Positions 12,415-29,397 of a stretch of 58,049 nucleotides of DNA are shown piece by piece. The translations under genes and the position numbers were made by a program. This stretch comes from Waddliaceae bacterium (GTDB taxonomy: Bacteria > Chlamydiota > Chlamydiia > Chlamydiales > SLFE01). The stretch covers positions 1 through 58,049 of the forward strand of contig CAWAPJ010000002.1 of the NCBI GenBank assembly GCA_963783885.1, in the 5' to 3' direction. Under the pieces are notes generated by a model that was not told the DNA's origin, did no database searches, and saw only the letters and a program-made list of their open reading frames with translations. Positions within the stretch are counted from its first letter, which is position 1. Every line of letters begins with the position of its first letter.

Positions 12415-12563
12415 TCTGTACTGATGAACCTAATACTCAACAAAAATCTTACTTTGTAAGGAATGCGCATACAAACCGAATGAATCAAGAAACAAGTACA
12501 AGCAGAACCTCTCTTCACATACCGATGATGTTTTATCCGAACTCTATGGAGCCGATTTATAAT

Positions 12564-12948
12564 TTATTGTTGTTGATTAGGTTTATCAAAGGGGCTATGT
12601 ATTTGGACATCGGGAATTTGGACATCGGGAATTTTGTGGCTGGGGATTCTATTGCTGGGGATTTTGATATCCGGAATAGGATGGCTGGGAATTCTGATAC
12701 TAGGAATTGGATAGCTGGGGATTTTGATATCCGGGATGGGATGGCTGGGAATGCGGACGCTAGGAATGCTGTAACTTGGAATTTTGACATCCGGAATCTT
12801 ATAATCTGGAATCCGGTTGCTTGGAGTCAGGGCTGCCAAGGTGAGGGTTTTGAATGAACTTGATGAGGGCATCATCTTTAGCCCCTGTGACGCATAGGGA
12901 CACCCCGGTGAAAACGATAACCAGGCATTTTAAGACTTTATTATACAT
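12564..12948 (-). CDS. Small, possibly secreted IPxxx pentapeptide-repeat protein; apparent +1 frameshift near 12882-12885
   Basis: AGGA RBS and ATG at 12948 give a signal-like MYNKVLKCLVIVFTGVSLCVTG. Removing one base at the G4 run joins it to the IP-repeat ORF 12564-12875. Confidence 0.55.
12601..12825. repeat. 15 tandem degenerate 15-bp repeats encoding IP(S/D)xx, with a 60-bp higher-order period
   Basis: Units such as atttggacatcggga, attttgatatccgga, ataggatggctggga. Confidence 0.9.
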
Positions 12949-13479
12949 ATGATTTATCCTCTTATTACAAATATTATTATATCATAAAAGTAATAATATA
13001 ATCACAATAATAAGCTTAAGTAATTTAAGTTCAAGCAATTACATTTCAGACAAGATCAAGCAATATAAGTCTCTGAATCTAATTGAGATAAATTCCGAGT
13101 AATGCTAACCTATTGTGCAATTAACTTTTGTTAATGACTAAAAGGAGAAGAATTTATGAATAATGTAGTTCGCACAACGCCTATGGAGAAATCATATAGG
13201 GCAGACACAAGAAGATTATTAGATTTAGAACAAAAGCCCATTTTGCCAGCAGTAGAAATAGCACATGACTTTCCAATGTCTCGAAATGAGTACAAACCAA
13301 TTTCAGTGGGAAAAACACTTTGCTGAGCTAAACAGCTTAATTCAATCAGATAATCCAATAAAACACTTAAGAATGATATAAAAATAATTGATCTTAAATC
13401 ACCAACTTCTATCTTAATTCAGCGCAAGGTTGTCTCTTTAAGTGGAAAATACTTACTCAAAGGTACCACAAATAACTGG

Positions 13480-13920
13480 TTGAATCCTCCCAAAAAAAGT
13501 AATGAAGCCACAAAGGAAAAACCTTCGGGAATAATTAGAAAAAGTAAAAGATATGTGTGCAAAGCGATCTCTTTCTGCGATCAATCTGTAAGACTCAGTG
13601 CTCGGGTAATCTATGGCATTGCAGTTGGTATCTTGATTGCTCCAATAGGAATTGCTTATCATTCGGCAAAGACTTTTCAACATGGAGTTTTCCCAAAGAA
13701 ACACGGGGGCGATACCGAATTGGCCCTAGATCATTTGCAAGCGCTCATTCGTGATATCGGATATTTTGTTTTAACTTTGGGAGGCTTTGCGGCTCCATAT
13801 GCGTATGGTTTCCTACCCGAAGAGGTGACAGCAATTCTTCATCCCTCCGATGAACAGGAAAATCTTGAAGAATCATTGTTCAACAGAAAATATCCTATCG
13901 ACAATACAGTCCAATCATAG
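13480..13920 (+). CDS. Hypothetical protein with hydrophobic segments
   Basis: 146-aa ORF followed by a hairpin at ~13933-13970; true start uncertain. Confidence 0.5.
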   Translation: MNPPKKSNEATKEKPSGIIRKSKRYVCKAISFCDQSVRLSARVIYGIAVGILIAPIGIAYHSAKTFQHGVFPKKHGGDTELALDHLQALIRDIGYFVLTLGGFAAPYAYGFLPEEVTAILHPSDEQENLEESLFNRKYPIDNTVQS

Positions 13921-13998
13921 AATATGATTTTTCTTCTCGCCCATACACTTCATTTTTTCGGGCGAGAGGATTCATTTTGAGTTTCTACTAAAAAATTT

Positions 13999-14027
13999 TT
14001 GACAGACAAAAACCGAATCGGTAATAT
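13999..14027 (+). promoter_or_regulatory. sigma66/sigma70-type promoter
   Basis: TTGACA-N17-TAATAT. Confidence 0.5.
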
Positions 14028-14288
14028 CCCTAACTTAAATAATCCCCCTAGCACTTTTTTCCGTGTAAATGAAAAATTTTCTCCGTAAACTTTTAGTCTC
14101 AATATCATACCAATGAGGCTAACCTATGACCATTCTCATTAGAAATTCCCTTTGTGCTGTCTCACAATCTGTAAAATCTAATCACTTCCTAGAGCGTCTC
14201 ACAGCGGATTAGGGCCACAATCAGGGTTTAAGAAATACACTTTTGTATATAATAATTAAGAAATATCTAAGCTATAAAGGAGATTAAT

Positions 14289-15422
14289 TTGAAAATTGTC
14301 GTTGCAGGCGGCGGGGCTGCCGGGTTTTTTGCGGCCATTGCAGCGAAGGAGACCTATCCGCACGCTGCAGTTATTCTACTCGAACGCGCAGCTAAGCTTT
14401 TAAGCAAAGTCCGTATTTCCGGTGGTGGAAGATGCAACGTCACCCATGCTTGTTTCGACCCGAAAGAGCTTGTTAAAAATTATCCGAGAGGCTTTAAAGA
14501 ACTTTTAGGGCCATTTCACCGTTTTCAACCAGCAGACACAGTCCAATGGTTTTCAGACAGGGGCGTCGAGCTAAAGACTGAAGATGATGGACGGATGTTT
14601 CCCATCACCGATTCTTCAGAGACCATTATTGACTGCTTGCTAGCGGAAGCCAATCGACTTGGGGTTATCATCCGGCTGCAAACGAAATTCAGCCTAAATG
14701 AAATGAAAGCTGATCGGATGATCCTTGCCACAGGCAGCGCTAAAGGCGGCTTTGACATCGCTTCAAAGCTTGGACACACAATTCAACCGCCGGTCCCGTC
14801 GCTTTTCACCTTTAATATTCCTAATTTTCAGTTAGAATCAATAGCAGGGGTTTCCGTCGACAGCGTCCGTTTGAGTCTAGAAGGAAGTAAACTCTTCCAA
14901 GAAGGTCCCATGCTCATTACGCATTGGGGATTTAGCGGTCCTGCAGCCTTGAAACTGTCTGCTTTCGGGGCGCGCTTCCTTGCTGAAAAAAACTATGAGA
15001 TTGGACTTTGCGTAGACTGGCTTCCTAATTTTTCAGTTGATGAATTAATGGCGCTTTTGGCGCTTGAAAATTCAACAAAAAAGCTGGGAAATATCAAATC
15101 AATACCGCTGCCGAAAAGACTGTGGAAGCTTCTATGCGGAAGGGAAAATCAGCTTTTAAGCGGCATGAGCAAACCTGCAATGCGCAAACTGTTCGAAAAG
15201 CTAAAGTCTGATCGGTACCAAGTAAAGGGGAAAACAACGAATAAAGAAGAGTTTGTCACTTGCGGCGGTGTGACATTGTCCGAGATTAATTTTAAAACTA
15301 TGGAGAGTAAGATCTATCCAGGACTCTATTTCTGCGGAGAAATCCTTGATATCGATGGAGTTACCGGCGGCTTTAACTTCCAAAACGCCTGGACTACAGG
15401 ATGGATCGCAGGGACAGCTTAG
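14289..15422 (+). CDS. HI0933/YhiN (BaiN) family FAD-dependent oxidoreductase
   Basis: GGGAAG, KVRISGGGRCNVT, VTCGGV, GEILDIDGVTGGFNFQNAW. Confidence 0.93.
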   Translation: MKIVVAGGGAAGFFAAIAAKETYPHAAVILLERAAKLLSKVRISGGGRCNVTHACFDPKELVKNYPRGFKELLGPFHRFQPADTVQWFSDRGVELKTEDDGRMFPITDSSETIIDCLLAEANRLGVIIRLQTKFSLNEMKADRMILATGSAKGGFDIASKLGHTIQPPVPSLFTFNIPNFQLESIAGVSVDSVRLSLEGSKLFQEGPMLITHWGFSGPAALKLSAFGARFLAEKNYEIGLCVDWLPNFSVDELMALLALENSTKKLGNIKSIPLPKRLWKLLCGRENQLLSGMSKPAMRKLFEKLKSDRYQVKGKTTNKEEFVTCGGVTLSEINFKTMESKIYPGLYFCGEILDIDGVTGGFNFQNAWTTGWIAGTA

Positions 15423-15425
15423 AGA

Positions 15426-16367
15426 CTAACTCCTAATCTTCCAGCAACGGTGAATATTTTTCTTATTAAAATCTTCAGGGATCGTTCTATCGGATATCTC
15501 TTCGACCCTGCACAAGGGAAAAGCCCCTTCGTCAAAGGCAAATCTTCTATAATTAGTGCTGAAATAAATGACACCATCCTTTTCAAGCAGCCTCAGCGCC
15601 AAAGTGATCAAGTTAACGTAATCCTTTTGAACATCAAACATTTCATTCATACGCTTTGATCGAGAAATTGTGGGCGGGTCAATCACAATAATGTCATATT
15701 TTTTAACTTCATGCTCAAGAAACCGCATACAGTCATCCCTGATAATGGGATTATCCTTAGCAGGGAGATGGTTCAATTCAAAATTATCACGTCCCCAGGA
15801 GGTATAAGTATTTGACATGTCGACACTTTTTGTATAAACCGCCCCGGAAGCTGCAGCATGAACACTAAAAGAGCAGGTATAGGCAAATAGATTAAGAAGT
15901 CTTTTTCCCTTAGCCGCTGAGGCGACTATTCTTCTAGTCGTACGATGGTCGAGAAATAAACCGGTATCTAAATAGTCTTTGAGGTTAATTTTAAACTTGA
16001 CGCCATGTTCGTGAGCAGTAAAAAACTCTTTATCTTCACCTCTTTTTTCGTACTGCTGCAGTTTGCGTCGACGGATCCTTGAGCGCGAGTAGATTTGACA
16101 ATCACCAAATAAAGAGGTGAGAACTTCATCCACTTCGGAGGTGTCTAATTCGTCATCGCCGCGGCCTGAGGAGAAGTGTTGCACGCAAAACCGGCCGGCG
16201 TAAATATCGATGGCCAAAGGATATTCTTTAATATCTCGGTCATAGATTCGAAAACAGTCTGTGTCCGTCCGTTTAGCCCACTTGCGAAGATGCCTGTAGT
16301 TTTTCCGGATGCGATTTTTAAGCGGCGAGCTTTTATCCTCTCCATCGCTTATATGAGGTAAAATCAT
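15426..16367 (-). CDS. Class I SAM-dependent rRNA methyltransferase (RlmK/RlmI-like)
   Basis: NRIRKN, FRIYDRDIKEY, YLDTGLFLDHR, LNLFAYT, VDMSNTY, DPPT; resembles the RlmK half of RlmKL. Confidence 0.88.
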   Translation of the reverse strand: MILPHISDGEDKSSPLKNRIRKNYRHLRKWAKRTDTDCFRIYDRDIKEYPLAIDIYAGRFCVQHFSSGRGDDELDTSEVDEVLTSLFGDCQIYSRSRIRRRKLQQYEKRGEDKEFFTAHEHGVKFKINLKDYLDTGLFLDHRTTRRIVASAAKGKRLLNLFAYTCSFSVHAAASGAVYTKSVDMSNTYTSWGRDNFELNHLPAKDNPIIRDDCMRFLEHEVKKYDIIVIDPPTISRSKRMNEMFDVQKDYVNLITLALRLLEKDGVIYFSTNYRRFAFDEGAFPLCRVEEISDRTIPEDFNKKNIHRCWKIRS

Positions 16368-16501
16368 GATGTATATGGATTTATAATACGTTTTATTGAT
16401 GATTGAAATCAATGTATGAAAAATCATTGGTTGAAGCGCGGGAAAAAATCTGTTATCAAAATGCCAAAATAATCCTGAAAATCTAATGATATTAGATCAG
16501 A

Positions 16502-16864
16502 GTCCAAGTTCGTAAGGTCTCCTTAGGCTGGGCGAAGCTGATCGCGTGCATCTATGAAGTCAATCCTCTCCTTTGTAAATGCGGCCAAGAGACGTTGCCT
16601 TTGTGACCCGCACCGCTGATATAAGAAGGTTCTTAAGCGGCATTGGCTGGTCCACCAAGATCCCAGAGTTTGATCCTGGGTATGACTTTCCCGATCGGGA
16701 AAGGTTCAAGTAACAGTAGAAAAAGGTCCAGATCCTCCTTTCCTAAGAAGATTGACTTTGAAGATGATCCTCTGAATAAATCAACCGCTTTAAGGTAGCG
16801 GGACTATTCCTTTCAGAATTTCGGTTGGACTTTTACCAACTAAATTCCATTCATGCCAAGCGCA
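16502..16864 (+). mobile_element. IS91-family (Y2 HUH) transposase 3' remnant plus terminal structure
   Basis: Frameshifted fragment WAKLIACIYEVNPLLCKCGQE / VAFVTRTADIRRFLSGIG resembles the IS91-type C-terminal WA.LI.R.YE.DPL.C..CG motif; hairpin end GGTTGGACTTTTACCAAC...CATGCCAAGCGCA. Confidence 0.65.
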
Positions 16865-17204
16865 GCTCGGTAAGCTCTAAAGAGCTTATTATTTGTTACG
16901 TAAGTTCAATCGCTAACATCACTTGACGAACGAGATTAGGTTACAATCAAGGGTTAAATAGTCTGGCTATTAAATTTTTAATTTGCTAAAAGTTGTTTTA
17001 TTTCTTGATACTTTTCGCCCTTTAGTGGTAATATTTGCTATTAATGTTGTTCATCCGCACGGTTTAGAACAAATATTTCATTTTAAAAAGGCGCGCTTTC
17101 GATCAGCGCCTATACTCTTTTCAGTATACCCCGACACTAAGTAACATGTGCCTGGATCGATCATAAGTGAAAACTTTTGCAGGGGCAGTTTTGGAGAATT
17201 TTGT

Positions 17205-18461
17205 ATGTCATTTGATACTCTCGGCTTATCGGCCGAACTCATTCTAGCTGTTACCGAACAGGGCTATAGCAATCCCACCCCGATCCAACGTCAGGCTATT
17301 CCTGTCATACTTAAGGGCTTAGATGTTTTGGGCGGTGCTGAAACCGGTACGGGAAAAACCGCCGGGTTTACCCTGCCGCTGCTGCATTGTTTAAATAAAA
17401 AAGTAGTGAGCAAAGGATGCTCTTCACCGCGCGCACTGATCTTAACGCCAACACGAGAACTTGCTGCCCAGGTGCATGAGAGCGTCAGGATTTATGGTAA
17501 GTATCTACCCTTGAAATCCACTGTCATTTTTGGTGGAGTCAATATTAATTCCCAGATTGCAAAACTTAAAAAGGGCGTTGACATCCTTGTAGCTACACCT
17601 GGACGTTTGCTTGATCATGTCAGTCAAAAAACCGTAGATCTTTCAAAAGTCGAAATCCTAGTGCTAGATGAAGCCGATCGAATGCTGGATATGGGTTTTA
17701 TTCACGATGTGCGGAAAATTATCAGACTGCTCCCTAGAAAAAGGCAGAATCTGCTTTTTTCGGCAACATTCTCAATTGAAATAAAAAAACTTGCAGACGA
17801 CTTTCTAAATTCTCCGGTAATGATCGAAGTAGCTCGAAAAAACATGGCATCAGAACATATAAAGCAGCTGATACATCCTGTTGACCGCAAGCTAAAACCT
17901 GAGCTGTTATCTCATCTGATTCGTACTGGAAACTGGAAACAAGCGCTAGTCTTCACTCGCACAAAACACGGTGCAAATCGTTTAACAAAGCAACTTGAAA
18001 AAGATGGGATCAGCGCTGTCGCCATCCATGGCAACAAAAGCCAAGCGGCCCGCACTAAAGCGCTAACGAGTTTCAAAAATGGGCTAGTGCGTATACTTGT
18101 TGCAACTGACATTGCAGCTCGAGGCTTAGATATCGATCAATTGCCGCATGTTGTCAACTTCGAGTTGCCGAATGTTCCTGAAGATTATGTGCATCGCATA
18201 GGCCGTACCGGCCGTGCCGGCAATAGCGGTGAGGCCATATCATTGGTCTGTATCGATGAACACAAACTTCTAAAGGATATAGAACACTTGACCAAACTCA
18301 AATTGCCAAAGGTTGTAATTTCCGGGTTTGAACCTGACCTAACGATTAAAGCTGAACCTATTCAAAAAATGCGCAAAGGCCGTTCTACTAAAAATCGCAG
18401 CTTCTTCGGCAAAGCAAAAGGAAAGCATCCATACAAGTCAATGAGATTGAAAAAAATCTAA
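17205..18461 (+). CDS. rhlE: DEAD-box RNA helicase RhlE
   Basis: Q motif, [29 protein letters not shown]-terminal GFEPD typical of RhlE; RBS GGAG upstream. Confidence 0.92.
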
Positions 18462-18676
18462 TTCCGCAGTCTCATAATGATTGAAATGGTTAAAATAGTT
18501 AACAATTAATCATCCTCAACGAAGGTCTCTGGAATTGATAACTCTTCTTTTTTTTCTTTTAACCTGCTCCCGTGCATAGCGTCAATTTCAGAAACTTGTT
18601 CCCTATCCTCTTGAGATAGATTCTTATGTTTAATAAGACTCATACGAAATGACTGGTTTTCTTTAAGGCAAAAGGG

Positions 18677-19467
18677 GGTAGTCCTAAACTTGTAATGCTT
18701 TTCTCTGGTTATAGTCACATATAAAATATTTTATCATGCCAATGTGGTTCTCACTAGCCTTGAGCATCGCTGCCCGAGCGTGTTATTAAATCTCTCAATG
18801 TAGCTTGTCTTACCTGACTCCTTTCCGACTGGGCGATGTTGTTCCCAAGGAAGGACTTCGTAGTAGATTGAGAACTTATCCGTATAAAAGACGGCTTTTT
18901 TTTTAAGTCCTCGGGGAGCTTCGCTAATAAGGATTCTGCTGCTTGCTTATTTCTTTTTCCTACATGCATAGCTAATACCTGTCGTGTACCTGAATGAAAT
19001 GCGAGCCAAAGCCATATTGGATTTTTTTTCTTTCCTACATAGCTCCACTGTTCATCAAGCTCAAGTAGAGTTTGAGATAGCTACCTCAAACTCTTCTTCT
19101 CCAGTTACATCCGCATTCAAATCTTCTGGAAGATCTTCGATTATTCTGTTCATAAAATTCAAAAGCCAGGGCATGCTGACGTCAAAGATTCTACAAATAC
19201 CTTCGAGAGAAACGTGTTCAAGCAATGCCTGTCTTACTCTTGATTTTGTCTCATCTGATATTATTTTTTGCAGAGGATCGATGACGAATTGCCTTCCACA
19301 AGACAAACACCTATGATTTTGCTTTCCACTGTGAATATGGCCGTTCTTTTTGATACTGGTGGATTTACAGTTAGGACAAGTGGGTGTCATTTGGGTCCTC
19401 CATTCGTTTTAGAAACAAAGGAAAACGCACAAGGAAATCAATGTCAATTCAAAAATTGAGCATTACA
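18677..19467 (-). mobile_element. Degenerate IS1-family element (insA/insB)
   Basis: CPNCKS...KKNG...GKQNHRCLSCGRQF; DEQWSYVG; A8G slippery site near 18897-18904; IERFN...QRCSRLV with an internal deletion; imperfect IRs GGTAGTCCTAAA / TGTAATGCTCAA; extra frameshift near 19070. Confidence 0.88.
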
Positions 19468-19908
19468 TGTTATGGACCACCCGCTCCTGCATATGATCTT
19501 AAATCAGTTCCAACAGCTACCAGTGATTCTGTTATATTTGATAAGGAATTAAATCAAGATATTTTGAAGATCTTTCAAGAGACTGGATGTACTTTATTGT
19601 TGGGAGATGGTGCAGGTTTAAATTATCTCTCCACAGACAAAAAAATCACTAAAATTTTAGAAGAATTAAAAAATTCATAAAATTCTTGATAGGGCCGTGA
19701 TAACCTATCTCGGAGCTTCATTAAGGAGCCAAAGCTGAATTTCGGATTGTTTTACGGCCTTGTTCACTTCTTTGGCTAGTTTTCGGTCGACTGCGAGGCC
19801 CCATCTGACGATCGATTGCTTCTCGGCAATAGCTAAAGCTATTCCCTTGTCGCAATCGTCACTTCCCGTGAAATAGTGTGGGAAAATTCTCCTCAAAGGC
19901 TTTTCTTT

Positions 19909-20070
19909 AACTCGACTTTATGATTTTTATCGTCTCGCTGGCTTCAGAGAGAACACTGATCTTTAAATTATTTTCACGGATTAGGTAATTTACCTGAATC
20001 CGTGAAAATAATTTAAAGCTGAGCGCCCTCTCTATTGCCATCAAATCGATAAAAATCATAAAGTCGAGTT
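19909..20070. repeat. 162-bp palindromic element upstream of the respiratory operon
   Basis: 24-bp perfect terminal IR AACTCGACTTTATGATTTTTATCG (19909-19932 / 20047-20070); 22-bp inner stem 19961-19982 / 19997-20018. Confidence 0.9.
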
Positions 20071-20122
20071 TAAAAAATGTCTGGTTTCTGTTACTTTTTT
20101 CCTTCAGTGGGGGAATTGTCGC

Positions 20123-21952
20123 ATGGAGGATGAGTTACAACGAGTTTATCGACAGCTCTATGATGTCGTCATCCCCGATCTCGATTATTATTTGCGCCAA
20201 ATTGACTGCAGGGACGGCTGTCCGGTGAATACGGACGGCAGGGGCTATATGCTGGCGATTCACGCGGGCAATTTGTTGGAGGGATACAAGATTGCCAGGG
20301 GGCCGAACCCTTTCGCTTCTATTTGCGGCATGATCTGCGGGGCGCCGTGCGAGATGACGTGCCGGAGGGACAGGGTCGATAAGACGCTGACGATTAGGGC
20401 GCAGAAGCGGTATTTGGACGAGTGGTTCGGTTTGGACAAAGAGGCTCATGTCAAGTCGCTGGAAATGAGTTACTCGAGGGGGTCGACAAATCCGAAACCC
20501 AACGGGCTGAAGGTGGCTTGCATTGGGGCGGGGGTGGCGTCGCTGACGGTCGCTCATGATTTGCTTCGTCTAGGGTATGCCGTCGATGTGTATGAGATGA
20601 TGCGGATGCCGGGAGGAATGCTGACTTATGGCGTGCCGACATATCGCCTGAAGAATGATGTGGCGTTGAATGAATGTTTCGCGATTGAACATCTCGGGGC
20701 GAACATCATTTGCAACTGCAAGGTGGGTCGCGATATCACGATGACCGAGCTCCAGGAAAAGTACGACGCTGTCTTTATCGGAGTGGGGCTTTGGAAGTCG
20801 AGGGATCTGCCGATACCGGGCGCGGATGGGCCTGACGTGATTCGGGGGATCGAGTATTTGCGGGTCAAGTGCGCTGAAGAGGAGTGGAAGATCGGCGACA
20901 ATCTGGTTGTTGTCGGGGGCGGAAATGTTGCGTTCGATGTGGCGAGGACTTCGGTGAGAAACGGGGCGAAAGTGACGATGGTGTGCCTTGAGGCGCGCGA
21001 TGAACAGACAGCGGATGAATTTGAGATCGAGGACGGGCTTGAAGAGGGGATTACGATCATCAACAGGATGGGCCCGAAAGAAATATTGCGCGATGAAAAC
21101 GGCAGGATTGAGGCGATCAGGGTGCAGCGGGTTTCGAAGCTTTTCAATTACAAGGGAGGATTCGCTCCGGAGTTCGTCGAGGGGGATGTGTTCGATATTC
21201 CCTGCAATGCGGTGGCTCTTTCTATTGGCCAGACAATGGACGAGAGTTTTTTAAATGGCTGGGATAGAAGAGACGAGCTGGTTGTCGAAAGAGGCGTTGT
21301 GAAGGTGGAGCGGGAGACGGGACGGACTTCTGTTGAAGGCGTGTATGCGGCGGGCGATGCTGCCTATGGGGCGGCGCTTTTCATTACGGCGATACGGCAG
21401 GGGCAGGAGACCGCGAGAGCGATCGACGCGGATCTTCGGGGGACGCGGCCGTACATGGAAGTTCTTGGGGAGTTTACCGAAATTTCTCCGATGAGAGGCA
21501 AAGAGTATTTGCGAACCGGTTATGCTTTGCCGACGTCGCAGCCTGCGCATGTTCGGCAGGACAATTACAATATGGTGGAAAACAACTATACGGCCGAAGA
21601 GGTGCATCAGCAGGCCAACCGCTGTCTGCAATGCCATGTCAATCCGGTTTTTGACGGAGCGCTTTGCATCAAGTGCAACGGGTGCGTCGATGTTTGTCCG
21701 TGCAATTGTTTGAAGCAGGTTCCGCTGAGTCAATTGAACATGGATCTTGGAGAGGGCAATATAAGAACGGCTGTCGATCATTATTACGGGATAGATTCTG
21801 CGAATACTGATGAGGAAGAACTTGAATTGATAGGGACGGCAATGTTAAAAGATGAAGATTTATGTATTCGGTGCGGACTGTGCGCTGAAAAGTGTCCGAC
21901 GCAGGCTGTGACGATGGATGTGATGAATTATTCTTTCCGGTGGATCGGATAA
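20123..21952 (+). CDS. FAD/NAD(P)-dependent iron-sulfur oxidoreductase (GltD/NfnB/DsrL-like) with C-terminal 2x[4Fe-4S] domain
   Basis: N-terminal CRDGCP...CGMICGAPCEMTC; GAGVAS and GGGNVA Rossmann motifs; AAGD; RCLQC; CIKCNGCVDVCP; CIRCGLCAEKCP. Confidence 0.9.
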   Translation: MEDELQRVYRQLYDVVIPDLDYYLRQIDCRDGCPVNTDGRGYMLAIHAGNLLEGYKIARGPNPFASICGMICGAPCEMTCRRDRVDKTLTIRAQKRYLDEWFGLDKEAHVKSLEMSYSRGSTNPKPNGLKVACIGAGVASLTVAHDLLRLGYAVDVYEMMRMPGGMLTYGVPTYRLKNDVALNECFAIEHLGANIICNCKVGRDITMTELQEKYDAVFIGVGLWKSRDLPIPGADGPDVIRGIEYLRVKCAEEEWKIGDNLVVVGGGNVAFDVARTSVRNGAKVTMVCLEARDEQTADEFEIEDGLEEGITIINRMGPKEILRDENGRIEAIRVQRVSKLFNYKGGFAPEFVEGDVFDIPCNAVALSIGQTMDESFLNGWDRRDELVVERGVVKVERETGRTSVEGVYAAGDAAYGAALFITAIRQGQETARAIDADLRGTRPYMEVLGEFTEISPMRGKEYLRTGYALPTSQPAHVRQDNYNMVENNYTAEEVHQQANRCLQCHVNPVFDGALCIKCNGCVDVCPCNCLKQVPLSQLNMDLGEGNIRTAVDHYYGIDSANTDEEELELIGTAMLKDEDLCIRCGLCAEKCPTQAVTMDVMNYSFRWIG

Positions 21953-22089
21953 TGTTTGAGACTTTGGTCTTTACATTGGCCGCCGGGTGTACAGGATTGT
22001 TGATCTGCCTGTACTTTTGGAGGAGGGGGCAGTTCGAAGATTGTGAAGATGTGAAATATCAAATGTTTCGTGATGAAGAGTGTGATTGA
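21952..22089 (+). CDS. CcoS-like cbb3 oxidase assembly microprotein (45 aa)
   Basis: TAATG coupling to the upstream gene; TM helix followed by [10 protein letters not shown]. Confidence 0.7.
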
Positions 22090-22091
22090 TT

Positions 22092-22604
22092 ATGCCTAAA
22101 CATAGAAATTCATTGAATGTCGACAAAGATAGCGAGGACCCGAGGATCTCCCGCCGATCGTTTCTTGCGCTTTTGGGGGTGGGAGCGGGAATCATCGGAG
22201 CGGGACAAATGTTCGGGGTGTCGATGCTGGGATTTCTATATCCCAACGCGATGAAGACGCCGCCGAGTACGTTTTCTATCGGCCGCCCGAATGAAGTGCT
22301 GTCGAAGGACGGAAAAATTTTTTACCCGAAGCAGAAAGTGTTTATCGAAACGCTTGGGGGGAAGGTGCGCGTGCAGACGGCTGTCTGCACTCACTTGGGC
22401 TGCACGGTGAATATGGTTGAGACGGGCTATGCCTGCCCCTGCCACGGGTCGACGTATGACCAGCATGGACGGAATACAGGGGGGCCTGCCCCTCTTCCGT
22501 TGGTTTACTTCAATGTTTATCAGGGGGCGTCAGGCGATATTATGGTGGACAAATCCAAGACAACACTGGACTACCGGGCGGCGTGGTTTTCGCCGACGGC
22601 ATGA
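22092..22604 (+). CDS. Rieske [2Fe-2S] subunit of a Rieske/cytochrome b complex
   Basis: Tat motif SRRSFL plus TM helix; CTHLGC and [15 protein letters not shown]. Confidence 0.95.
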
Positions 22605-22618
22605 ACTAAAGGAACGGT

Positions 22619-23944
22619 ATGGCAGTATTTACAGGAAAACCTCGGGAGACGTGGGCGGAGCATATTGCAAGACTCCCGGCCAATTTTGTGCGGTCGATTT
22701 TTCGGCATAACTATCCGAACAACGACGTGGATCGTTCGGAGATCGTTTTTAAGAATTTTTTTCTTCATTTTCATCCGGTAAAGTGCCACAAGCGCTCGCT
22801 CGACCCTTTTTATACTTTGGGACTGGGGACGATCACAACGAGCTTGTTTATCCTTTTGACGATTACAGGCGTGATATTGATGTTCTATTACATACCGGCC
22901 GAGGATCGGGCATTCAACATCATGAAGGACTGGCAGGACACGACGCCGTTTGCCATGATGTACCGCAATATGCACCGGTGGAGCGCTCATATGATGGTGC
23001 TTTTTGTGTTTTTGCACATGTCGCGGGTCTTTTACACGGCCGGATACAAAAGCACGCGGAAGTTTAACTGGGTTGTGGGCGTGATTTTAATGGTGCTGAC
23101 GCTTCTGCTTTCGTTTACTGGGTATCTGCTTCCCTGGGACCAGCTGGCGTTTTGGGCGGTGACGGTGGGATCGGAGATTGCCGGCTACGCGCCGAACATT
23201 CCCGGTTTTGAGTACAATATCAACAAAGTGATGCTGCTGGCGTCGACGACGGTCGGCCAAGATGCTTTGATTCGGTTTTACGTGCTGCATGTCGCGCTTC
23301 TTCCACTGGTGACGGGGATGATGATCGGGGTGCACTTTTGGCGCATCCGAAAAGATGGCGGGCTCTCCCGCCCTCCCGATAAAATCCGTCCCGATCCCTG
23401 CCGCGTGATTCAGAGGTCGGATACAAAAGAGTCGTTCGCTCCCGGAGTGAAGCGGACATACGGTTTGATGGAGCTTGTGAGGGGAACATGTCCGACAGTG
23501 GACAAGGGGCCTTACAAATTCGTGTTTACATGGCCGCATCTTTTGAGGGCGGAGCTTTTGGTCTTTTTCCTGACGACGGTGCTTATTTTGGGGCTGAGTT
23601 TTATCAACGCCCCGCTCGAAGAGCCGGCCAACCCGAGCAAGCCGCCGAACCCGTCGAAAGCTCCTTGGTATTTTCTGGGGTTGCAGGAGATGGTTTCTTA
23701 CAGCGCGTTTTGGGGCGGCGTTGGAATTCCGGCGTTGATTATTGTTGGATTGATGCTCATCCCCTATCTCGATCGCAACCCCAATGGCGAGGGATACTGG
23801 TTTCACAGAAGCCGCTACCTGGCTGTCTTCTTGTATACCGCGTTTATGACAATGCAGGGGATATTGATTGTGATTGGGTCGATATTTAGAGGGGCTAACT
23901 GGGGATGGATATGGCCTTGGACAGAAACATTTGCGAGACACTAG
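22619..23944 (+). CDS. Cytochrome b (b6 + subunit IV fused)
   Basis: Heme ligands in MHRW, FLHMSRVF, FYVLH, GVHFW; GYLLPWDQ; APLEEPANP...APWYF. Confidence 0.95.
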   Translation: MAVFTGKPRETWAEHIARLPANFVRSIFRHNYPNNDVDRSEIVFKNFFLHFHPVKCHKRSLDPFYTLGLGTITTSLFILLTITGVILMFYYIPAEDRAFNIMKDWQDTTPFAMMYRNMHRWSAHMMVLFVFLHMSRVFYTAGYKSTRKFNWVVGVILMVLTLLLSFTGYLLPWDQLAFWAVTVGSEIAGYAPNIPGFEYNINKVMLLASTTVGQDALIRFYVLHVALLPLVTGMMIGVHFWRIRKDGGLSRPPDKIRPDPCRVIQRSDTKESFAPGVKRTYGLMELVRGTCPTVDKGPYKFVFTWPHLLRAELLVFFLTTVLILGLSFINAPLEEPANPSKPPNPSKAPWYFLGLQEMVSYSAFWGGVGIPALIIVGLMLIPYLDRNPNGEGYWFHRSRYLAVFLYTAFMTMQGILIVIGSIFRGANWGWIWPWTETFARH

Positions 23945-23945
23945 A

Positions 23946-26900
23946 ATGAGACTTAGATCGGAAGATTATTATCAAATCGCGCTCATCGCATCGGCGGTGG
24001 TGGTTACGGTTTTGTTCGGAGTCTTTTTATATCGCGAGATTTACCCTCAGTATAAGATTTTTCAGAAAGATTACGTGGCTCTTGAGGACTTTCGATCGAC
24101 TTATACAGCAGCCCCTCCTCCCCCGTTTAAATTCGGGGTGAAACAGATTGTGATACCCGATCCGGAAAAAGGTCCTCCAACGATCGACAGGTGCATCTCC
24201 TGCCATGTGGCCCTTAAATTTGAACATTTTTCCCCGACAGTGATTGCCCGCGATGTGAACGGCTTAATCATCTACGACAAAAACGGTGTTCCAAAGAAGG
24301 GGCCAAATCCGAATTATATCTGGAAAAAGCTCGATGAAAAAATCGCCGACTTGAAGCAAAAAGGCGATGATGGCAAAGCCGAAAGGCTAGAGTCTTTAAA
24401 AACCGTTCATGTTGACGGCCACGACTACCGGGTCGACAAAGCGCTGATCATGCACCCTTTGATTGGAAGGGAGACTCGTCCCTTCGAGTATCATCCGATT
24501 GATGAGTATGGATGCGCGGTATGCCATGGAGGAAATGGAAGAAGCCTTGTCACATCCCGCGCACACGGTCCTGTTTATGAAGGGCAGTATGAAGAAACTT
24601 ATATGGGTCCGAAGCCGGAGTTTCTCGAAGAGGATATCGAGAACAATCCGAAGTTTGCCAAAGCTTACAGCGGCAAGCCGGGCCACGAGCTCCTTTTTCA
24701 AACGACGCCGCTTCTTGTGGGGAATTTAATTCAGGCCAAATGCGTTCTCTGCCACAAGCCGACAAGCCAGAAATTGTCCGGCCTGGCGTCCAATGTCAAA
24801 AAGGTTGCCGAGACGAAATCGGAGCAGATCGATGTGATCAGGAAAGCATTTGAGCAGGAATACAACGCTTTAGTGGCTCTTCTTTCCTTAAGGAAGTTTT
24901 TGAATGATCGAGGGATTCAGCAGGCGTTCAAGACTCTGCAGAAACAATCGGAGAACTACGCCCTTCCTCCCGAGGAGCTGAAAAAGATTCGGGGCAACAT
25001 CAACTATTTGCGCGAGTCGATTGTTCAGGCGGAGCAGGAGCCTTATCAGGAACAGAAGGTTTTGAAAAAAATCGATGCGGATCTGCTGAAGCTTTTAGGA
25101 TCGAAGAAAGTTGTCGAGGCAGTGCAGAAGGCGTTTGATAAAAATGAAGATATGACCCTGGATCAGATGTGGGAGCTTTTGAAGAAAGAGAGGGGTGAAG
25201 GGAATCAGGGATCGCTTTATATCAAAGGCGAAATTCTTGAGAAGCAAAAAAGTCTGAAGACCAGTGTGGAAAGCATGACCTATTCGGTGAGCCGGGCGGC
25301 GGGGTCGAAGGAATTGGTTTCGGGACTTGAAAGCGATATCGATCGGTTGACGAAAGATTTTCAGCGAGGCGAAGAACTTTTCTTCTCCCAGGCCTGCTAT
25401 GCCTGCCACAGAATTACCGGCCTTTCGCGGGGAGGCGTCGGCCCCGAGCTGACCGATGAAGGGCTTCGGGAGCCGTGGTTTGTCAAAGAGTCGATTGTGT
25501 GGCCGCAGGCGGACCTGAAAACCTCGACGATGCCAAACTACAAAATGGATCACGAAGAGGTCGAAGATCTCGTGACCTTTCTGCTCGCGCAGCGCCCCGA
25601 AAACCAGTCGAGGCAGGGGATGGTGGAGAAGAGCCGCCTGAAAGCTTGGGAAGAGGGGAAAAAGAACGAGTGGGAAGAGGCGATAGCTCCCGGAGAGATA
25701 CGGGATTTGCAAAGAGCGATGGAGATTTTTGCGACCGAAGGGTGTGCCGCTTGCCACCGGTTGAAAGGTTTTGACGCGAATGTCGGGTTCGCCATTGAAA
25801 AAGACAATCCCACTTTTGATGAGCTGTATGAAGAGAAGCAATGGTTCCAAAAACTGTTCCCCGAGCATGAGCTCGGATCAAATATTGTGCAGACGATCGA
25901 AAGTCACAAGGAAGAGATCGACAAAAGAATTGTCGACAGTGTGCGCAAAGACGCCATTTTGGATGAGATAGAAAAGAAATATCCTAAGCTCATCGAATCC
26001 TTTTATGCCGATTTTAAATTTGCCTCGCGGGCCAAAAATCATGAGTATGAAACGCAGATCGAAAACGCATCGAGTCCGGAAAAGAAAAGGGCTTTAAAAG
26101 AAGGGCTTAGCGCCTGGAAAGAGCGGGTTCATCGGATTTTGCTCATGTTTGTTCAGGAATATGGGCTCGGAAGGCAGATCGGCCCTAGGCTGAACTGGTC
26201 GGGCATCTATCGATCGGACAAATGGCTGATGGAGCACTTTTGGAATCCCTCGTCGCTTGTGGCGCGCTCGATCATGCCTGTTTTTCCTTTTGACAATACT
26301 AAGTTTTTGGCTCTGACTTATATGCTCGATTCCCTGGGTCAAAAAAATCGCAGCGAGCTCAGAGAAGTTTGGGACAACAAGGGCTTCAATCCCGAAATGG
26401 CTTTCGATATGCTTTGCGCCCAGTGTCATGGAAACCATTTAAAAGGGAACGGACCCGTTTCGGAATGGATTTATCCCGTTCCGAAAAATTTGAGCAATCC
26501 TGTCTTTATGCGCAATTTGACAAAAGAGCGGGCGATCGAGTCGATCACTCATGGGATCCATGGCACCCCTATGCCTCCCTGGGGAGAAGCGGCAACAGAC
26601 AAAAACTTTGTCAATAATGCTCCTGTGTTGGGAAAAGACGATATTGCCGAGCTGGTGAACTGGATATACCGCAATCTTCCGGGAGAGAGATTTATTCGGG
26701 AAGAAGAGAAAGAGGTGCAGAAGTGGGAATACCGCCCGGAAGATGTGATTCGGGATCTCCAGAAAGCAGGAGATGTTTTAAAGTCGAAGCCGCAGTCGAG
26801 CTTGGGGCTTCCCACAGGTGAAGAGTATATCGCCTCGCTGATCCCGGTGATAGCTGCGGCGCCCTCAAAAAACCTGACAGTCGAGGATGTTTTCGATGTT

Positions 26901-27983
26901 GTGCCCAATCCTTATGGCGGCCCGGAAAAAAACAATTACTATATCAAAAAGAAGTACTATACCAAAGAGAATCTAGCTGAAGGGAAGGCGTTTTTTGAGC
27001 TCAACTGCGCCATATGCCATGGCAAGGAGGCCGATGGCGCAGGTCTTCGCGCCGGAGTTATGGAAGAGGCAAAGCCTAGAATGCTCATCAATCTTCCGTG
27101 GATTGAAAGCCGAGATGATTTGAGGCTGATCCGTTCAATCTATTATGGCGTTCCCGGTACATCCATGATCCCATGGGGGGACCAGACAACGTCGAAGCAG
27201 CGCCTACAACTTGTGATGTATATACGGAGTTTGACGGAAAGTAAGAGGGATTACGAACAGTTTAAAAATGTTCTCTTTCAAGTTTTTCAAAATCCTATCT
27301 GGGCCATTGAAGACGCCCGTTCGTCTGTGTCGAAAAAGATCAAGGAGTTGGAAAAACAGTCTTATGAAACGAGAGAGGCGCGCCAGAAGATGGAAGATCT
27401 GGTCAAAACGGGACAGGTGAAGCCGGAGAAGATCGCTGCCGTCTACAGCAAGGAGCTCAATTCCCTAAGAAAGCTTCAAAAGTATCGAGAGACAGACGAA
27501 ATCCTTGCCGATTTGATTGGCCAGGTCAAAAAAGAACAAAATCTTTACCAGTCTCTGGGCGACTCGATTTTCAAACTGTATGGCGAATCGGTGGCTTTTA
27601 CCGATTTTTTGAAAGCTATTGCTGCGAATCAAAATCATTTTTCCTATGAAGATGGAAAACTCCAGCAGCGGCATGCCGATGAAAAAAAACTTGCAGAGTT
27701 TAAAACCGATATTTTAAAGATCATCGGCGATGATATTCAAGTTCTCAAATATCAGGAAAGTGTGGAAAAGGGAAAAATTTCAACATCTGGAAAAAGAGAA
27801 AAACTCAGCGAGATCAAAAAAAGCTTGCAGCAGCAAAAACAGCTTGAAAACGAGACCATATCGACTTTTTCCCAGCTTGACCGTTTGCGTGAAAAGCAAA
27901 AGAAAACTTATGAAGATTATATGAAAAAACTCAAGACTTTGGAACAAAGCGATGACAGAAGCAGCGAAAGCAAAATATCATGA
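23946..27983 (+). CDS. Membrane-anchored multiheme cytochrome c (7 CXXCH) with helical/coiled-coil inserts
   Basis: CISCH, CAVCH, CVLCH, CYACH, CAACH, CAQCH, CAICH; N-terminal TM helix; ATG two bases after the cytochrome b stop. Confidence 0.9.
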   Translation: MRLRSEDYYQIALIASAVVVTVLFGVFLYREIYPQYKIFQKDYVALEDFRSTYTAAPPPPFKFGVKQIVIPDPEKGPPTIDRCISCHVALKFEHFSPTVIARDVNGLIIYDKNGVPKKGPNPNYIWKKLDEKIADLKQKGDDGKAERLESLKTVHVDGHDYRVDKALIMHPLIGRETRPFEYHPIDEYGCAVCHGGNGRSLVTSRAHGPVYEGQYEETYMGPKPEFLEEDIENNPKFAKAYSGKPGHELLFQTTPLLVGNLIQAKCVLCHKPTSQKLSGLASNVKKVAETKSEQIDVIRKAFEQEYNALVALLSLRKFLNDRGIQQAFKTLQKQSENYALPPEELKKIRGNINYLRESIVQAEQEPYQEQKVLKKIDADLLKLLGSKKVVEAVQKAFDKNEDMTLDQMWELLKKERGEGNQGSLYIKGEILEKQKSLKTSVESMTYSVSRAAGSKELVSGLESDIDRLTKDFQRGEELFFSQACYACHRITGLSRGGVGPELTDEGLREPWFVKESIVWPQADLKTSTMPNYKMDHEEVEDLVTFLLAQRPENQSRQGMVEKSRLKAWEEGKKNEWEEAIAPGEIRDLQRAMEIFATEGCAACHRLKGFDANVGFAIEKDNPTFDELYEEKQWFQKLFPEHELGSNIVQTIESHKEEIDKRIVDSVRKDAILDEIEKKYPKLIESFYADFKFASRAKNHEYETQIENASSPEKKRALKEGLSAWKERVHRILLMFVQEYGLGRQIGPRLNWSGIYRSDKWLMEHFWNPSSLVARSIMPVFPFDNTKFLALTYMLDSLGQKNRSELREVWDNKGFNPEMAFDMLCAQCHGNHLKGNGPVSEWIYPVPKNLSNPVFMRNLTKERAIESITHGIHGTPMPPWGEAATDKNFVNNAPVLGKDDIAELVNWIYRNLPGERFIREEEKEVQKWEYRPEDVIRDLQKAGDVLKSKPQSSLGLPTGEEYIASLIPVIAAAPSKNLTVEDVFDVVPNPYGGPEKNNYYIKKKYYTKENLAEGKAFFELNCAICHGKEADGAGLRAGVMEEAKPRMLINLPWIESRDDLRLIRSIYYGVPGTSMIPWGDQTTSKQRLQLVMYIRSLTESKRDYEQFKNVLFQVFQNPIWAIEDARSSVSKKIKELEKQSYETREARQKMEDLVKTGQVKPEKIAAVYSKELNSLRKLQKYRETDEILADLIGQVKKEQNLYQSLGDSIFKLYGESVAFTDFLKAIAANQNHFSYEDGKLQQRHADEKKLAEFKTDILKIIGDDIQVLKYQESVEKGKISTSGKREKLSEIKKSLQQQKQLENETISTFSQLDRLREKQKKTYEDYMKKLKTLEQSDDRSSESKIS

Positions 27984-29397
27984 CGGTCCGACAAAGTGGC
28001 TGATCTATCCGGCCCTCTGTTTTATGATTGTAGGGATGACCATCGGGGTTTTTATCTCCTACAACACATTTATCTTCCCCGATTATTTTTCGGGCGAGTA
28101 TATCCATTTCGGGAAACTCAGGCCTGTCCACGTGATGGGCGTTTTGCTCCTTTGGCTGCTGTCGGCGAACCTGGGACTTTGCTATTTTTTGGTGCAGAGG
28201 CTTTGCGGGGTGAGGATATGGAGCGTCAAACTCGCTTACGTGTCGATCGCCCTTTGGTGGTTCGGATTGATCTTTAGCCAGTTTTCCTATCCCTTCGGAA
28301 CAAATTACGGTTGGGAGTATGACGAAACTCCCATGTTTGTTTGGTGGCTGCCGGTTAAGCCGATTATTGTTTTGGCTTGGGTTTTGACGCTGTTTAATTT
28401 TTATGCCACTACTTATTACAGAAAAAATGAAAAGCTTTATGTTTCGATGTGGTATGTTCTTGCCGCGATGCTTTGGGCGACTGTGGTCTTTTGGGTGGGA
28501 GGCTTTAGCTTGGAGTTTTTGCCGATGGGGATTTCGCGGGTAAACGCGGAGTTCTTTTATGTCCACAACTTGGTTGGATTGATATTCACTCCCCTGGGAC
28601 TTGCGATTGCTTATTATTATCTGCCAAAGCTTGCCAATACGCCGATATACAGCCATAAATTGTCGATGATCGGTTTTTGGTCTCTTGCCTTTGTCTATGG
28701 CTGGGTCGGGGCCCACCATATCATTCATGGACCGATCACCCAATGGATCCAGACGGTTTCGATCATCTTTTCGGTTTGGCTTTTCGTTCCGGTCTTTACC
28801 GTTGTCCTCAATATTTTTGCCACGCTCCAGCCGAATTGGAAGCAGTATACCGAAAGCGCCGCCGTCCGTTTCATTGTGATGGGAAACATATTCTATCTGA
28901 TCACCTCGGTTCAGGGGACGTTTATGGCCCTTCGCAATATCAACGAAATCACATCCAAAACCGATTGGGTGATTGGACACTCCCATATTGCCCTTTACGG
29001 AACGTTCACGTTTTTTGCTATGGCAGGCATTTTTTATGTGGTTCCGGTGATGACCAAAAAGCCCCTTTGGTCGACAAAACTTGCCAACTGGACGTTTGCC
29101 CTAAATGTCTTTGGAAGCGTCCCCTTTATTTTGGCGCTCTGGATAGGCGGCTATCTTCAGGGGCTGATGTGGGCGAGTTGGGCGACGGGGGTCACCTATG
29201 CCGAGTTTCAGGCCAATTTGAGCAATCTCCCCTTTTTGCAAACGCTGGCCAATACGTACCCCTGGTGGCTTCTCCGCAGCATCGGCGGGACGATTATTCT
29301 TTTTGCCAACATTTTATTTGTGGTCAATATTTTCAATACGATTGTGTTAAAACCGAGAGAGGATGTGGCGAAAGTTAACGTTGAGGCGGCAACATGA
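27952..29397 (+). CDS. ccoN: cbb3-type (C-family) heme-copper oxygen reductase subunit I
   Basis: LRPVH, FYVHNLVG, YYYLPK...PIYSHKLS, VYGWVGAHH, TDWVIGHSH. Confidence 0.9.
   Translation: MTEAAKAKYHDGPTKWLIYPALCFMIVGMTIGVFISYNTFIFPDYFSGEYIHFGKLRPVHVMGVLLLWLLSANLGLCYFLVQRLCGVRIWSVKLAYVSIALWWFGLIFSQFSYPFGTNYGWEYDETPMFVWWLPVKPIIVLAWVLTLFNFYATTYYRKNEKLYVSMWYVLAAMLWATVVFWVGGFSLEFLPMGISRVNAEFFYVHNLVGLIFTPLGLAIAYYYLPKLANTPIYSHKLSMIGFWSLAFVYGWVGAHHIIHGPITQWIQTVSIIFSVWLFVPVFTVVLNIFATLQPNWKQYTESAAVRFIVMGNIFYLITSVQGTFMALRNINEITSKTDWVIGHSHIALYGTFTFFAMAGIFYVVPVMTKKPLWSTKLANWTFALNVFGSVPFILALWIGGYLQGLMWASWATGVTYAEFQANLSNLPFLQTLANTYPWWLLRSIGGTIILFANILFVVNIFNTIVLKPREDVAKVNVEAAT

Follow-up and report, generated by a model that had tools for sequence, protein, structure and literature searches.

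What does a flavoprotein related to GltD and NfnB do at the head of an operon for a Rieske/cytochrome b complex and a cbb3-type oxidase? The question was raised by contig CAWAPJ010000002.1 of a Waddliaceae bacterium (assembly GCA_963783885.1: 2.16 Mb, 46 contigs, 88.9% complete), of which a stretch of 58,049 nt of the forward strand was analyzed; this whole stretch is called the window, and coordinates given without the name of another locus or genome are positions in it. The gene in question, located at 20123-21952 on the plus strand with an ATG start, codes for an iron-sulfur (Fe-S) flavoprotein of 609 amino acids (aa) and is followed by genes for a Rieske protein, a cytochrome b, a heptahaem cytochrome c and two oxidase subunits. 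The answer to which we lean, at a chance a little short of even, is that the protein serves as the subunit that binds NAD(H), on the cytoplasmic side, in a Rieske/cytochrome b complex of the type known from anaerobic ammonium-oxidizing (anammox) bacteria. The domain architecture of the protein, its homologies, its gene linkage and the motifs shared by its partners are described first; its binding to cytochrome b, cofactor content, specificity for NADH and direction of electron flow are predictions and are discussed as such.

The flavoprotein and its predicted cofactors

An earlier, sequence-only reading of this DNA had given the flavoprotein gene the span 20123-22604. The gene was confirmed, but not its end: the flavoprotein stops at 21952, and position 22604 is the stop of the Rieske gene. 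The span holds three genes, coding for the flavoprotein, a FixS/CcoS-like open reading frame (ORF) of 45 aa and the Rieske protein. The architecture proposed in that reading, an N-terminal Fe-S domain, FAD and NAD(P) Rossmann folds and a C-terminal ferredoxin with two clusters, was borne out by Pfam and by motifs: Fer4_20 matched residues 28-102 (E 1e-13), Pyr_redox_2 residues 130-427 (E 4.1e-23) and Fer4/Fer4_7 residues 515-599; the glycine motifs of the dinucleotide folds are GAGVAS (135-140) and GGGNVA (265-270), and two CxxCxxCxxxCP motifs extend from C515 to C525 and from C581 to C591. A hydropathy scan revealed no hydrophobic segment and the N-terminus is acidic, in agreement with the absence of a signal peptide noted before; the protein is predicted to be cytoplasmic.

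The best 120 matches of the protein were all relatives 77-90% identical to it, those at 77-80% being labelled as Chlamydiales, Parachlamydia and Parachlamydiaceae metagenome-assembled genomes (MAGs). An AlphaFold2 model built on a 43-row family alignment reached a mean pLDDT (predicted local distance difference test) of 93.0 and a pTM (predicted template modelling score) of 0.91. Fourteen cysteines are invariant in this alignment (C33, C72, C76, C80, C501, C504, C515, C518, C521, C525, C581, C584, C587 and C591), and C29, C68 and C529 are nearly so. The conserved cysteines fall into three groups: six near the N-terminus; C501 and C504, which belong to an RCLxC segment placed after the flavin domain; and those of the two CxxCxxCxxxCP motifs. 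Motifs and homologs together suggest four Fe-S clusters between the FAD and the protein surface. Two of these would belong to the GltD/NfnB-like module, with C501 and C504 completing them, and the other two would lie in the C-terminal ferredoxin domain. For models of the anammox proteins, 'four [4/3Fe4S] clusters' are described in PMC12954380, a paper cited here and below from excerpts.

No NCBIfam model exceeded its cut-off among the 25 matches shown of 78; the best were NF009410 (PRK12771; 375.1 bits, cut-off 516), gltA (242, cut-off 471.75) and gltD_gamma (181.5, cut-off 482.95). The nearest solved folds found by Foldseek were 9bov_A, 8oh5_C and 9n5u_A, followed by NfnB (5jfc_L, 4ylf_B) and then by GltD, at E values of 7.7e-47 to 3e-30 and a TMq of 0.58-0.69; a search by sequence gave E 1.3e-75 to 1.6e-48. 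The same Fe-S/FAD/NAD(P) core fold is present in Bfu-type NfnABC (9bov/9bp5, 9n5u), StnABC (8oh5), NfnB (4ylf_B, 5jca_L) and GltD (6s6s, 2vdc), and 9bov_A likewise has its RCLxC segment behind the flavin domain. These enzymes are soluble and have an NfnA, HydB-like or GltB partner, none of which was seen among the window neighbours. In contrast to them, the window protein ends in a two-cluster ferredoxin domain of its own, is linked to bc genes and has Glu290 where they have Arg.

This core homology to GltD and NfnB, and automatic names such as 'glutamate synthase beta subunit-like' and 'NADPH-Fe(3+) oxidoreductase subunit beta', would fit an ordinary GltD, NfnB or SudA-type subunit standing beside respiratory genes by chance. 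Such a coincidence is highly improbable: no NCBIfam model reached its cut-off, not even NF009410; the protein carries an extra C-terminal ferredoxin and its RCLxC segment has moved behind the flavin domain; the Glu_synthase domain was not found in the 88.9%-complete genome; and the gene is strictly linked to Rieske and cytochrome b genes, as shown below. The glutamate synthase and NfnAB readings were rejected on the NCBIfam scores and on the absence of a PF01645 match in the assembly. The statement that gltB, nfnA and dsr genes are missing nearby stood for the neighbours at 14289-35466, where Pfam showed none; beyond this neighbourhood it holds for Glu_synthase (PF01645), which had no match anywhere in the assembly, dsr, nfnA and SudB not having been searched genome-wide. 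DsrL, to which the protein had been likened, has a similar domain string, with N-terminal Fe-S, FAD/NAD(P) folds and a C-terminal ferredoxin; no dsr genes occur among the scanned window neighbours.

In the nucleotide pocket, the second beta strand is followed by C288-L289-E290. An acidic residue after the second beta strand of a Rossmann fold is a signature of NADH. The position of E290 is occupied by Glu in 39 of the 43 family rows, and two rows have Y-R-R there, whereas 9bov_A and all four aligned anammox-type proteins carry Y-R-R at the CLE position. The window protein does not have the NADP(H)-type YRR pocket of the anammox proteins and NfnA; its own pocket looks to be of the NADH type and not of the NADPH type.

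Linkage to cytochrome b in the Chlamydiota

The co-occurrence of the flavoprotein (E <= 1e-30) and the cytochrome b (E <= 1e-20) was analyzed in 401 Chlamydiota genomes, the window's own included. The flavoprotein was found in 85 genomes and this cytochrome b in 88. All but one of the 84 other flavoprotein holders also have the cytochrome b, and in 80 it is located downstream on the same contig and strand, at a distance of 509-4616 nt, mostly 640-850 nt, which leaves room for a small ORF and the Rieske gene. Three assemblies are fragmented, with flavoprotein and cytochrome b on separate contigs. In the sole genome with the flavoprotein only (G366), a deletion takes out residues 32-441 of the cytochrome b and half of the haem protein. 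Among the genomes with the cytochrome b only, the contig of G172 ends a few hundred bases past the small FixS-like ORF, upstream of which the flavoprotein gene would be expected, and in G208 the cytochrome b match begins at base 3 of the contig. Among the families without a match is one with 30 genomes, whose sizes are about 1.0-1.2 Mb (the range of the 21 listed).

Two irregular loci were observed. In G366 (locus L094, C3:35000-45000) residue 31 of the cytochrome b is joined to residue 630 of the heptahaem protein, and the FixS-like ORF is separated from the Rieske gene by about 1.5 kb of extra DNA; either the operon is decaying or the locus is misassembled. In G379 (C3:49717-53541), a member of the window's genus and its closest relative, the flavoprotein match is split in two (residues 1-355 and 351-609) and that of the cytochrome b is likewise broken up, one piece having three TGA codons inside; these breaks appear to be frame breaks or assembly errors.

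Linkage to Rieske and cytochrome b outside the Chlamydiota

A library with one representative per 50%-identity cluster contained a single chlamydial cluster (75% identity), followed by numerous proteins about 600-650 aa long, with 35-46% identity to the window protein along the full length. An alignment of 41 such proteins, searched against one genome per species, yielded 584 confirmed relatives. The best 80 loci were examined, their neighbours being identified by tblastn with the window's proteins; these are the loci scoring best to a single query, close kin included, and counts based on them overstate independence. In 36 of the 80 the match continues through the second ferredoxin motif. A Rieske or cytochrome b gene is adjacent in 32 of these 36 full-length loci, and both are present in 31, the usual order being flavoprotein, Rieske 17-240 nt later, and cytochrome b. 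Neither gene stands beside any of the other 44 loci, which code mostly for Firmicutes-type fused proteins whose match ends near residue 525 and which further include six loci cut by a contig end. Holders belong to the Ignavibacteriota, Acidobacteriota, Planctomycetes, Verrucomicrobia, Victivallales and Nitrospirae, and further to the Actinomycetes, Zixiibacteriota, Eisenbacteria, Abyssobacteria and Chloracidobacterium.

The terminal module, encoded after the multihaem cytochrome, differs between loci. Genes for ccoNO and ccoG are present in Ignavibacteriota L002, Holophagaceae L023, where a P-type ATPase is also encoded, and Waddliaceae L047. In L010 (16214-21787) a molybdopterin enzyme of 1166 aa is found together with Fer4_11 and EB_dh haem subunits, an arrangement that L012 and L016 resemble in gene sizes and that probably represents a Nar/Nxr-type periplasmic module connected to a bc complex of this kind. 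In L063 a molybdopterin enzyme is accompanied by Fe-S subunits. Since the terminal module varies in this way, the Rieske/cytochrome b unit is the constant partner of the flavoprotein.

The sequence-only reading had suggested co-occurrence with an APWY-type cytochrome b as a check and had named homologs occurring mostly without bc genes as a finding that would speak against it. The opposite was observed: with the cytochrome b in 83 of the 84 chlamydial holders, and Rieske or cytochrome b in 32 of the 36 full-length loci elsewhere, a functional link is strongly favoured.

The four full-length loci without Rieske or cytochrome b in the available DNA are a short Anaerolineae contig, a Coriobacteriia contig and two Capsulimonadaceae loci. 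The last two have flanks of 4-10 kb, and an Fe-S_biosyn (HesB/IscA-like) protein is encoded next to the flavoprotein instead (L014 6878-7357; L066 12634-13092). Because Rieske and cytochrome b are missing from these loci, some members of the family would work without a nearby bc complex, and the Capsulimonadaceae branch may work differently.

The same two loci, with their flanks free of bc genes, would suit a soluble NAD(P)H oxidoreductase that is merely co-transcribed with the respiratory genes, for example as a source of reductant for haem, copper or Fe-S maturation, and does not dock at all. So would the absence of a membrane segment from the flavoprotein, the FixS/CcoS-like maturation peptide adjoining it and the weak docking prediction described below. 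We consider this possibility rather remote. Rieske and cytochrome b are constant across phyla whatever the terminal enzyme, which does not hold for maturation genes; an extension with R29 and H50 is common to the linked cytochromes b and missing from a flavoprotein-less one; all docking controls scored 0.00; and all subunits of the anammox complex are reported to comigrate (excerpts of PMC12954380, citing de Almeida 2016).

Two further gene arrangements were seen in these loci. Many Acidobacteriota loci (e.g. L003 7831-9963) have a conserved gene pair just upstream of the flavoprotein gene, of which one product is about 440-600 aa long, contains a single CxxCH and matched nothing in Pfam, and the other, about 200 aa long, combines a cupredoxin (Copper-bind) domain with a CarboxypepD_reg domain. 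In a Planctomycetales MAG (L007 5365-9417) the cytochrome b is apparently fused to a decahaem cytochrome c, in a frame of 1350 aa with 10 CxxCH motifs.

The Rieske protein and cytochrome b

The Rieske [2Fe-2S] protein is encoded at 22092-22604 (+) from an ATG, or from a TTG at 22086 (Rieske domain E 8.8e-9). It has a twin-arginine signal, with the leader motif RRSFL, and one membrane helix, and its cluster boxes CTHLGC and CPCHGSTY are of the Ser/Tyr type. CPCHGS followed by Y or F was found in all Rieske genes of the flavoprotein-linked clusters examined.

The cytochrome b, a fused protein of 441 aa with a cytochrome b6 part and a subunit-IV-like part (22619-23944, +), gave ExtP/ExtQ-like matches below the cut-offs, and its best solved matches are b6 chains (E 1e-37). 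It has the four haem-ligand histidines, an N-terminal extension, and APWY in place of PEWY. Within the extension R29 and H50 are invariant in 24 of 24 rows of linked cytochromes b, an alignment from which a wrong-frame ORF (L003:12505-13287) and a flavoprotein-less comparator (L018:4997-5977) were excluded; the extension is absent altogether from the flavoprotein-less cytochrome b of the same acidobacterial locus. KAPWYF is present in every flavoprotein-linked locus where the pattern was found, including the anammox-type ones. The APWY cytochrome b to which the earlier reading had pointed is a hallmark of every flavoprotein-linked cluster examined.

The window cytochrome b has T66/G68 at the position of b6 Cys35 in a HMMER alignment, and so lacks the cysteine of haem cN. 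This cysteine is present in the anammox-type cytochromes b; among the other linked cytochromes b aligned it was seen only in Nitrospirae L024.

Comparison with the anammox complexes and with canonical complexes

In Kuenenia, two gene clusters, Kuste4569-4574 and Kustd1480-1485, are each described as including a putative NAD(P) oxidoreductase located on the cytoplasmic side, and quinol bifurcation is proposed to drive the reduction of NAD(P)+, a reaction that stays a proposal even for anammox (excerpts of PMC12954380). Docking at the cytoplasmic face of cytochrome b and transfer of low-potential electrons to NAD(P), which the sequence-only reading had put forward, are already published for Kuenenia and are not a new idea. 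The proposal of NAD(P) reduction reportedly originated with Kartal 2013, and the complexome is said to be that of de Almeida 2016.

Anammox-type genomes were taken to be five Planctomycetota genomes with two HZS_alpha (PF18582) ORFs of about 810-826 aa each. HZS_alpha alone is promiscuous in the Planctomycetota (86 of 401 genomes), and the assignment is backed by gene order, by the His43 position and by the Ser/Tyr and Ser/Phe pattern of the Rieske proteins. In each of the five genomes the flavoprotein family is represented by two full-length proteins (563-607 bits), located in Rieske/cytochrome b clusters. The gene orders are Rieske-flavoprotein-cytochrome b-subunit IV and Rieske-cytochrome b-flavoprotein-subunit IV, which fit the numbering of Kuste4569-71 and Kustd1480-83; the Rieske boxes, CPCHGSKYY and CPCHGSGFT, fit the Ser/Tyr type of Kuste4569 and the Ser/Phe type of Kustd1480. 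The window flavoprotein is 30-32% identical to both paralogues over residues 13-604, and the cysteine motifs align. A conserved His in an LH motif is residue 43 from the Met in the loci of the first cluster type (L091-L093; the check covered this type and not Kustd1481, with His62), matching His43 of Kuste4571. According to the AlphaFold3 models described in the excerpts of PMC12954380, this His43 holds a new b haem between the cytochrome b monomers.

The window system resembles the anammox complexes in the domain order, cysteine pattern and full-length homology of the flavoprotein, which has the same nearest solved structures; in the neighbouring genes for a Rieske protein, a b6-type cytochrome b with subunit IV and a multihaem cytochrome c; and in the KAPWYF motif of the Qo site, the CPCHGS box of the Rieske protein and the N-terminal His of cytochrome b, which is H50 here. 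It differs in several respects. The host is a heterotrophic, host-associated chlamydia and not an autotroph; the terminal partner is a cbb3 O2 reductase and not an HAO-like enzyme; cytochrome b and subunit IV are fused; the nucleotide pocket is CLE and not YRR; and the flavoprotein gene comes first in the operon, with a FixS-like peptide inserted after it. A further difference, the missing cysteine of haem cN, is taken up below.

With canonical b6f and bc1 complexes and with bc1-cbb3 supercomplexes such as those of Pseudomonas and Rhodobacter, the window system shares a Rieske protein, a dihaem cytochrome b with four His ligands, a c-type cytochrome and a cbb3 sink. In contrast to the b6f and bc1 complexes, it has a predicted additional flavoprotein on the n-side and APWY in place of PEWY; all its genes are in a single operon, and a heptahaem anchor replaces cytochrome c1, cytochrome f or CcoP.

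A published reconstruction of chlamydial respiration lists PetBD and CcoNO, and the flavoprotein is not mentioned in the excerpts of it (PMC9816063). In the open full text, no description was found of the flavoprotein in chlamydiae or of the wider spread of the module; anammox papers under subscription may mention relatives outside anammox.

Prediction of the complex

Complex prediction was performed with two full copies of the cytochrome b and residues 495-609 of the flavoprotein (a fragment of 115 residues), haems and clusters being omitted. The docking scores were 0.38, 0.32 and 0.34, all three controls gave 0.00, and the verdict of the tool was 'weak support'. The runs shared at least 73% of contacts, the pLDDT of the partner was 68 or higher, and the tool reported no interface. 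In the calibration, 116 of 157 solved complexes reached the mark, against 2 of 215 mismatched pairs; with scores of 0.60 or lower it was reached by 18 of the 157 solved complexes and by both of the mismatches. By this calibration, a weak pass of this kind is more likely to be false than true, except for a guess that was probable to begin with. Because the prior from gene linkage is strong, the score was counted as a small gain and not as a proof; the model slightly favours binding of the flavoprotein to the cytochrome b.

Predicted wiring and direction of electron flow

In the reading that we prefer, the ferredoxin end of the flavoprotein would lie on the n-side face of the cytochrome b dimer, the face with the extension that carries R29 and H50, and H50 would be the counterpart of the anammox His predicted to hold the extra interfacial haem. 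The chain of low-potential b haems would be wired to NAD+/NADH through the four Fe-S clusters and the FAD, and the high-potential branch would run from the Rieske protein to the heptahaem cytochrome c and on to the cbb3 oxidase.

As to direction, we lean to the oxidation of menaquinol at the APWY-type Qo site, with one electron passing to O2 and the other to NAD+; the NADH formed would re-enter the chain via Na+-NQR. The reason is that the window Rieske protein is of the Ser/Tyr type and would stand beside menaquinone, as in the argument made for anammox. There, Rieske proteins of the Ser/Tyr and Ser/Phe types, with potentials of +303 and +335 mV, occur beside menaquinone-7, and such potentials are argued to force haem bP low enough that NAD(P)+ can be reduced (excerpts of PMC12954380). 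MenD and NqrA are present in the window's genome. In the 88.9%-complete assembly the futalosine marker MqnA, NuoD and PntB were not found, and there was no UbiG match over the cut-off. The quinone is probably menaquinone.

With the same docking, electrons could also flow the opposite way: the flavoprotein would then be an NADH dehydrogenase module, passing electrons from NADH via FAD and the four Fe-S clusters to haem bN and menaquinone on the n-side, and one operon would encode a chain from NADH to O2. A comparable case would be cytochrome b6f, into whose n-side ferredoxin/FNR has been proposed to feed electrons. All of the linkage evidence fits this direction equally well. The reaction would be downhill throughout, the hosts are heterotrophs, NuoD was not found in the 88.9%-complete assembly, and Glu at the position of E290 in 39 of 43 rows points to NADH, the catabolic carrier. 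Still, we judge the reversed flow somewhat unlikely: Na+-NQR is already present for the oxidation of NADH, and APWY together with the lost haem cN cysteine puts an n-side quinone site in doubt. A Ser/Tyr Rieske protein with menaquinone, moreover, predicts a very low b chain, which makes entry from NADH at haem bN less favourable (excerpts of PMC12954380).

Several points weigh against our reading of the flavoprotein as an anammox-type subunit that reduces NAD+, in addition to the four full-length loci without bc genes, the close kin among the 80 loci and the low docking scores. Since the window cytochrome b, unlike the anammox-type one, has no haem cN cysteine, the electron path of anammox cannot be copied one to one. 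Menaquinone is deduced from one marker gene, MenD, and the Rieske potential from two residues. A heterotroph that makes NADH by catabolism has no obvious need for a quinol-driven reduction of NAD+, and the Glu pocket fits the oxidation of NADH at least as well as the reduction of NAD+.

A wider form of the proposal is an 'extended Q cycle' in Chlamydiae and many other phyla that use menaquinone. At an APWY-type Qo site with a Rieske centre of high potential, one electron of menaquinol would reach the cbb3 oxidase and O2 by way of the heptahaem cytochrome, and the other would cross the membrane via the b haems, an extra His50-bound haem and the four Fe-S clusters to NAD+. The NADH would be re-oxidised by Na+-NQR or complex I, and the recycled electron would pass a further coupling site. 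In this general form the proposal is speculative, and we think it has a distinctly less than even chance of being right.

Operon layout and surroundings

The genes of the operon overlap or stand a few bases apart. The TAATG coupling of the flavoprotein gene to the next gene, noted earlier, is located at 21950-21954, and the partner in this overlap is the ORF of 45 aa (21952-22089, +). It codes for a FixS/CcoS-like peptide with one hydrophobic segment, predicted as a single helix, whose PF03597 match is below threshold (E 3.6e-4; 20.6 bits, cut-off 23.1); homologs occupy the same place in the Waddliaceae MAG L047 (44% identity) and in the chlamydial loci L094 and L095.

Downstream of the cytochrome b gene, a membrane-anchored heptahaem cytochrome c is encoded at 23946-27983 (+), with seven CxxCH motifs and one N-terminal helix. 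Its frame is open from a TTG at 23874; the likely start is the ATG at 23946, two bases past the cytochrome b stop. The protein has FixO-like and cbb3-subunit-III-like domains, and the operon has no separate CcoP gene. Next come a CcoN-like catalytic subunit of a cbb3-type haem-copper oxidase (27952-29397, +; 481 aa; COX1 253 bits) and a CcoO-like monohaem subunit (29394-30668, +; 424 aa; FixO 79.5 bits) with a long N-terminal extension, one CxxCH and one membrane helix. The COX1 and FixO matches exceed the Pfam cut-offs, whereas the NCBIfam equivalogs ccoN (TIGR00780; 259.8 bits, cut-off 583) and ccoO are under theirs, and the oxidase is for this reason considered divergent. At the end of the operon are two small ORFs, each with a hydrophobic stretch, of 57 aa (30649-30822, +) and 88 aa (30826-31092, +), neither of which had a Pfam match at E <= 1. 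The tail of the 57-aa ORF (WRKGRLDFDE) is similar to the FixS-like ORF at 21952.

Directly 5' of the first gene lies an imperfect inverted repeat with arms at 19897-19982 and 19997-20082, 86 nt long, 81% complementary and 14 nt apart. It may serve as a regulatory site or represent a small mobile element. One sigma-70-like sequence, a match to the consensus only, is located inside it at 20035-20064. The G+C content rises from 0.38-0.43 in 10001-20000 to 0.52 in 20001-24000, the first 4 kb of the operon, and the GC skew reaches +0.28 in 20001-22000; this shift may be an effect of codon usage or a sign of acquisition. Beyond the operon, a protein of 259 aa at 32490-33269 (+) has an F-box-like domain (Pfam E 8.2e-9), a domain of eukaryotic type, and a protein of 628 aa at 33580-35466 gave weak matches of coiled-coil type only.

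Significance

A route from quinol to NAD(P)H through a Rieske/cytochrome b-flavoprotein complex has been discussed for anammox bacteria for over a decade, the reaction not having been demonstrated (excerpts of PMC12954380). The present genomic data support well a link of the flavoprotein to cytochrome b outside that group. The module heads a bc-cbb3 operon in about one fifth of the sampled Chlamydiota genomes and recurs beside Rieske and cytochrome b genes in many phyla; because of this spread, it appears to be an uncharacterised form of complex III that is general rather than peculiar to anammox. Compared with the anammox kind, the window version is linked to O2, has a predicted NADH-type pocket and, by alignment, lacks the haem cN cysteine. 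With O2 as the driving acceptor and a pocket of the NADH type, simple membrane assays become conceivable.

If the extended Q cycle holds, quinol would drive the reduction of NAD+, with O2 as the acceptor that pulls it, in organisms that can be grown; the anammox hypothesis would gain an experimental footing, and the yield of ions per electron in menaquinol respiration would rise. For the biology of the chlamydiae, the module would connect the NAD pool of amoeba-associated lineages directly to their respiratory chain.

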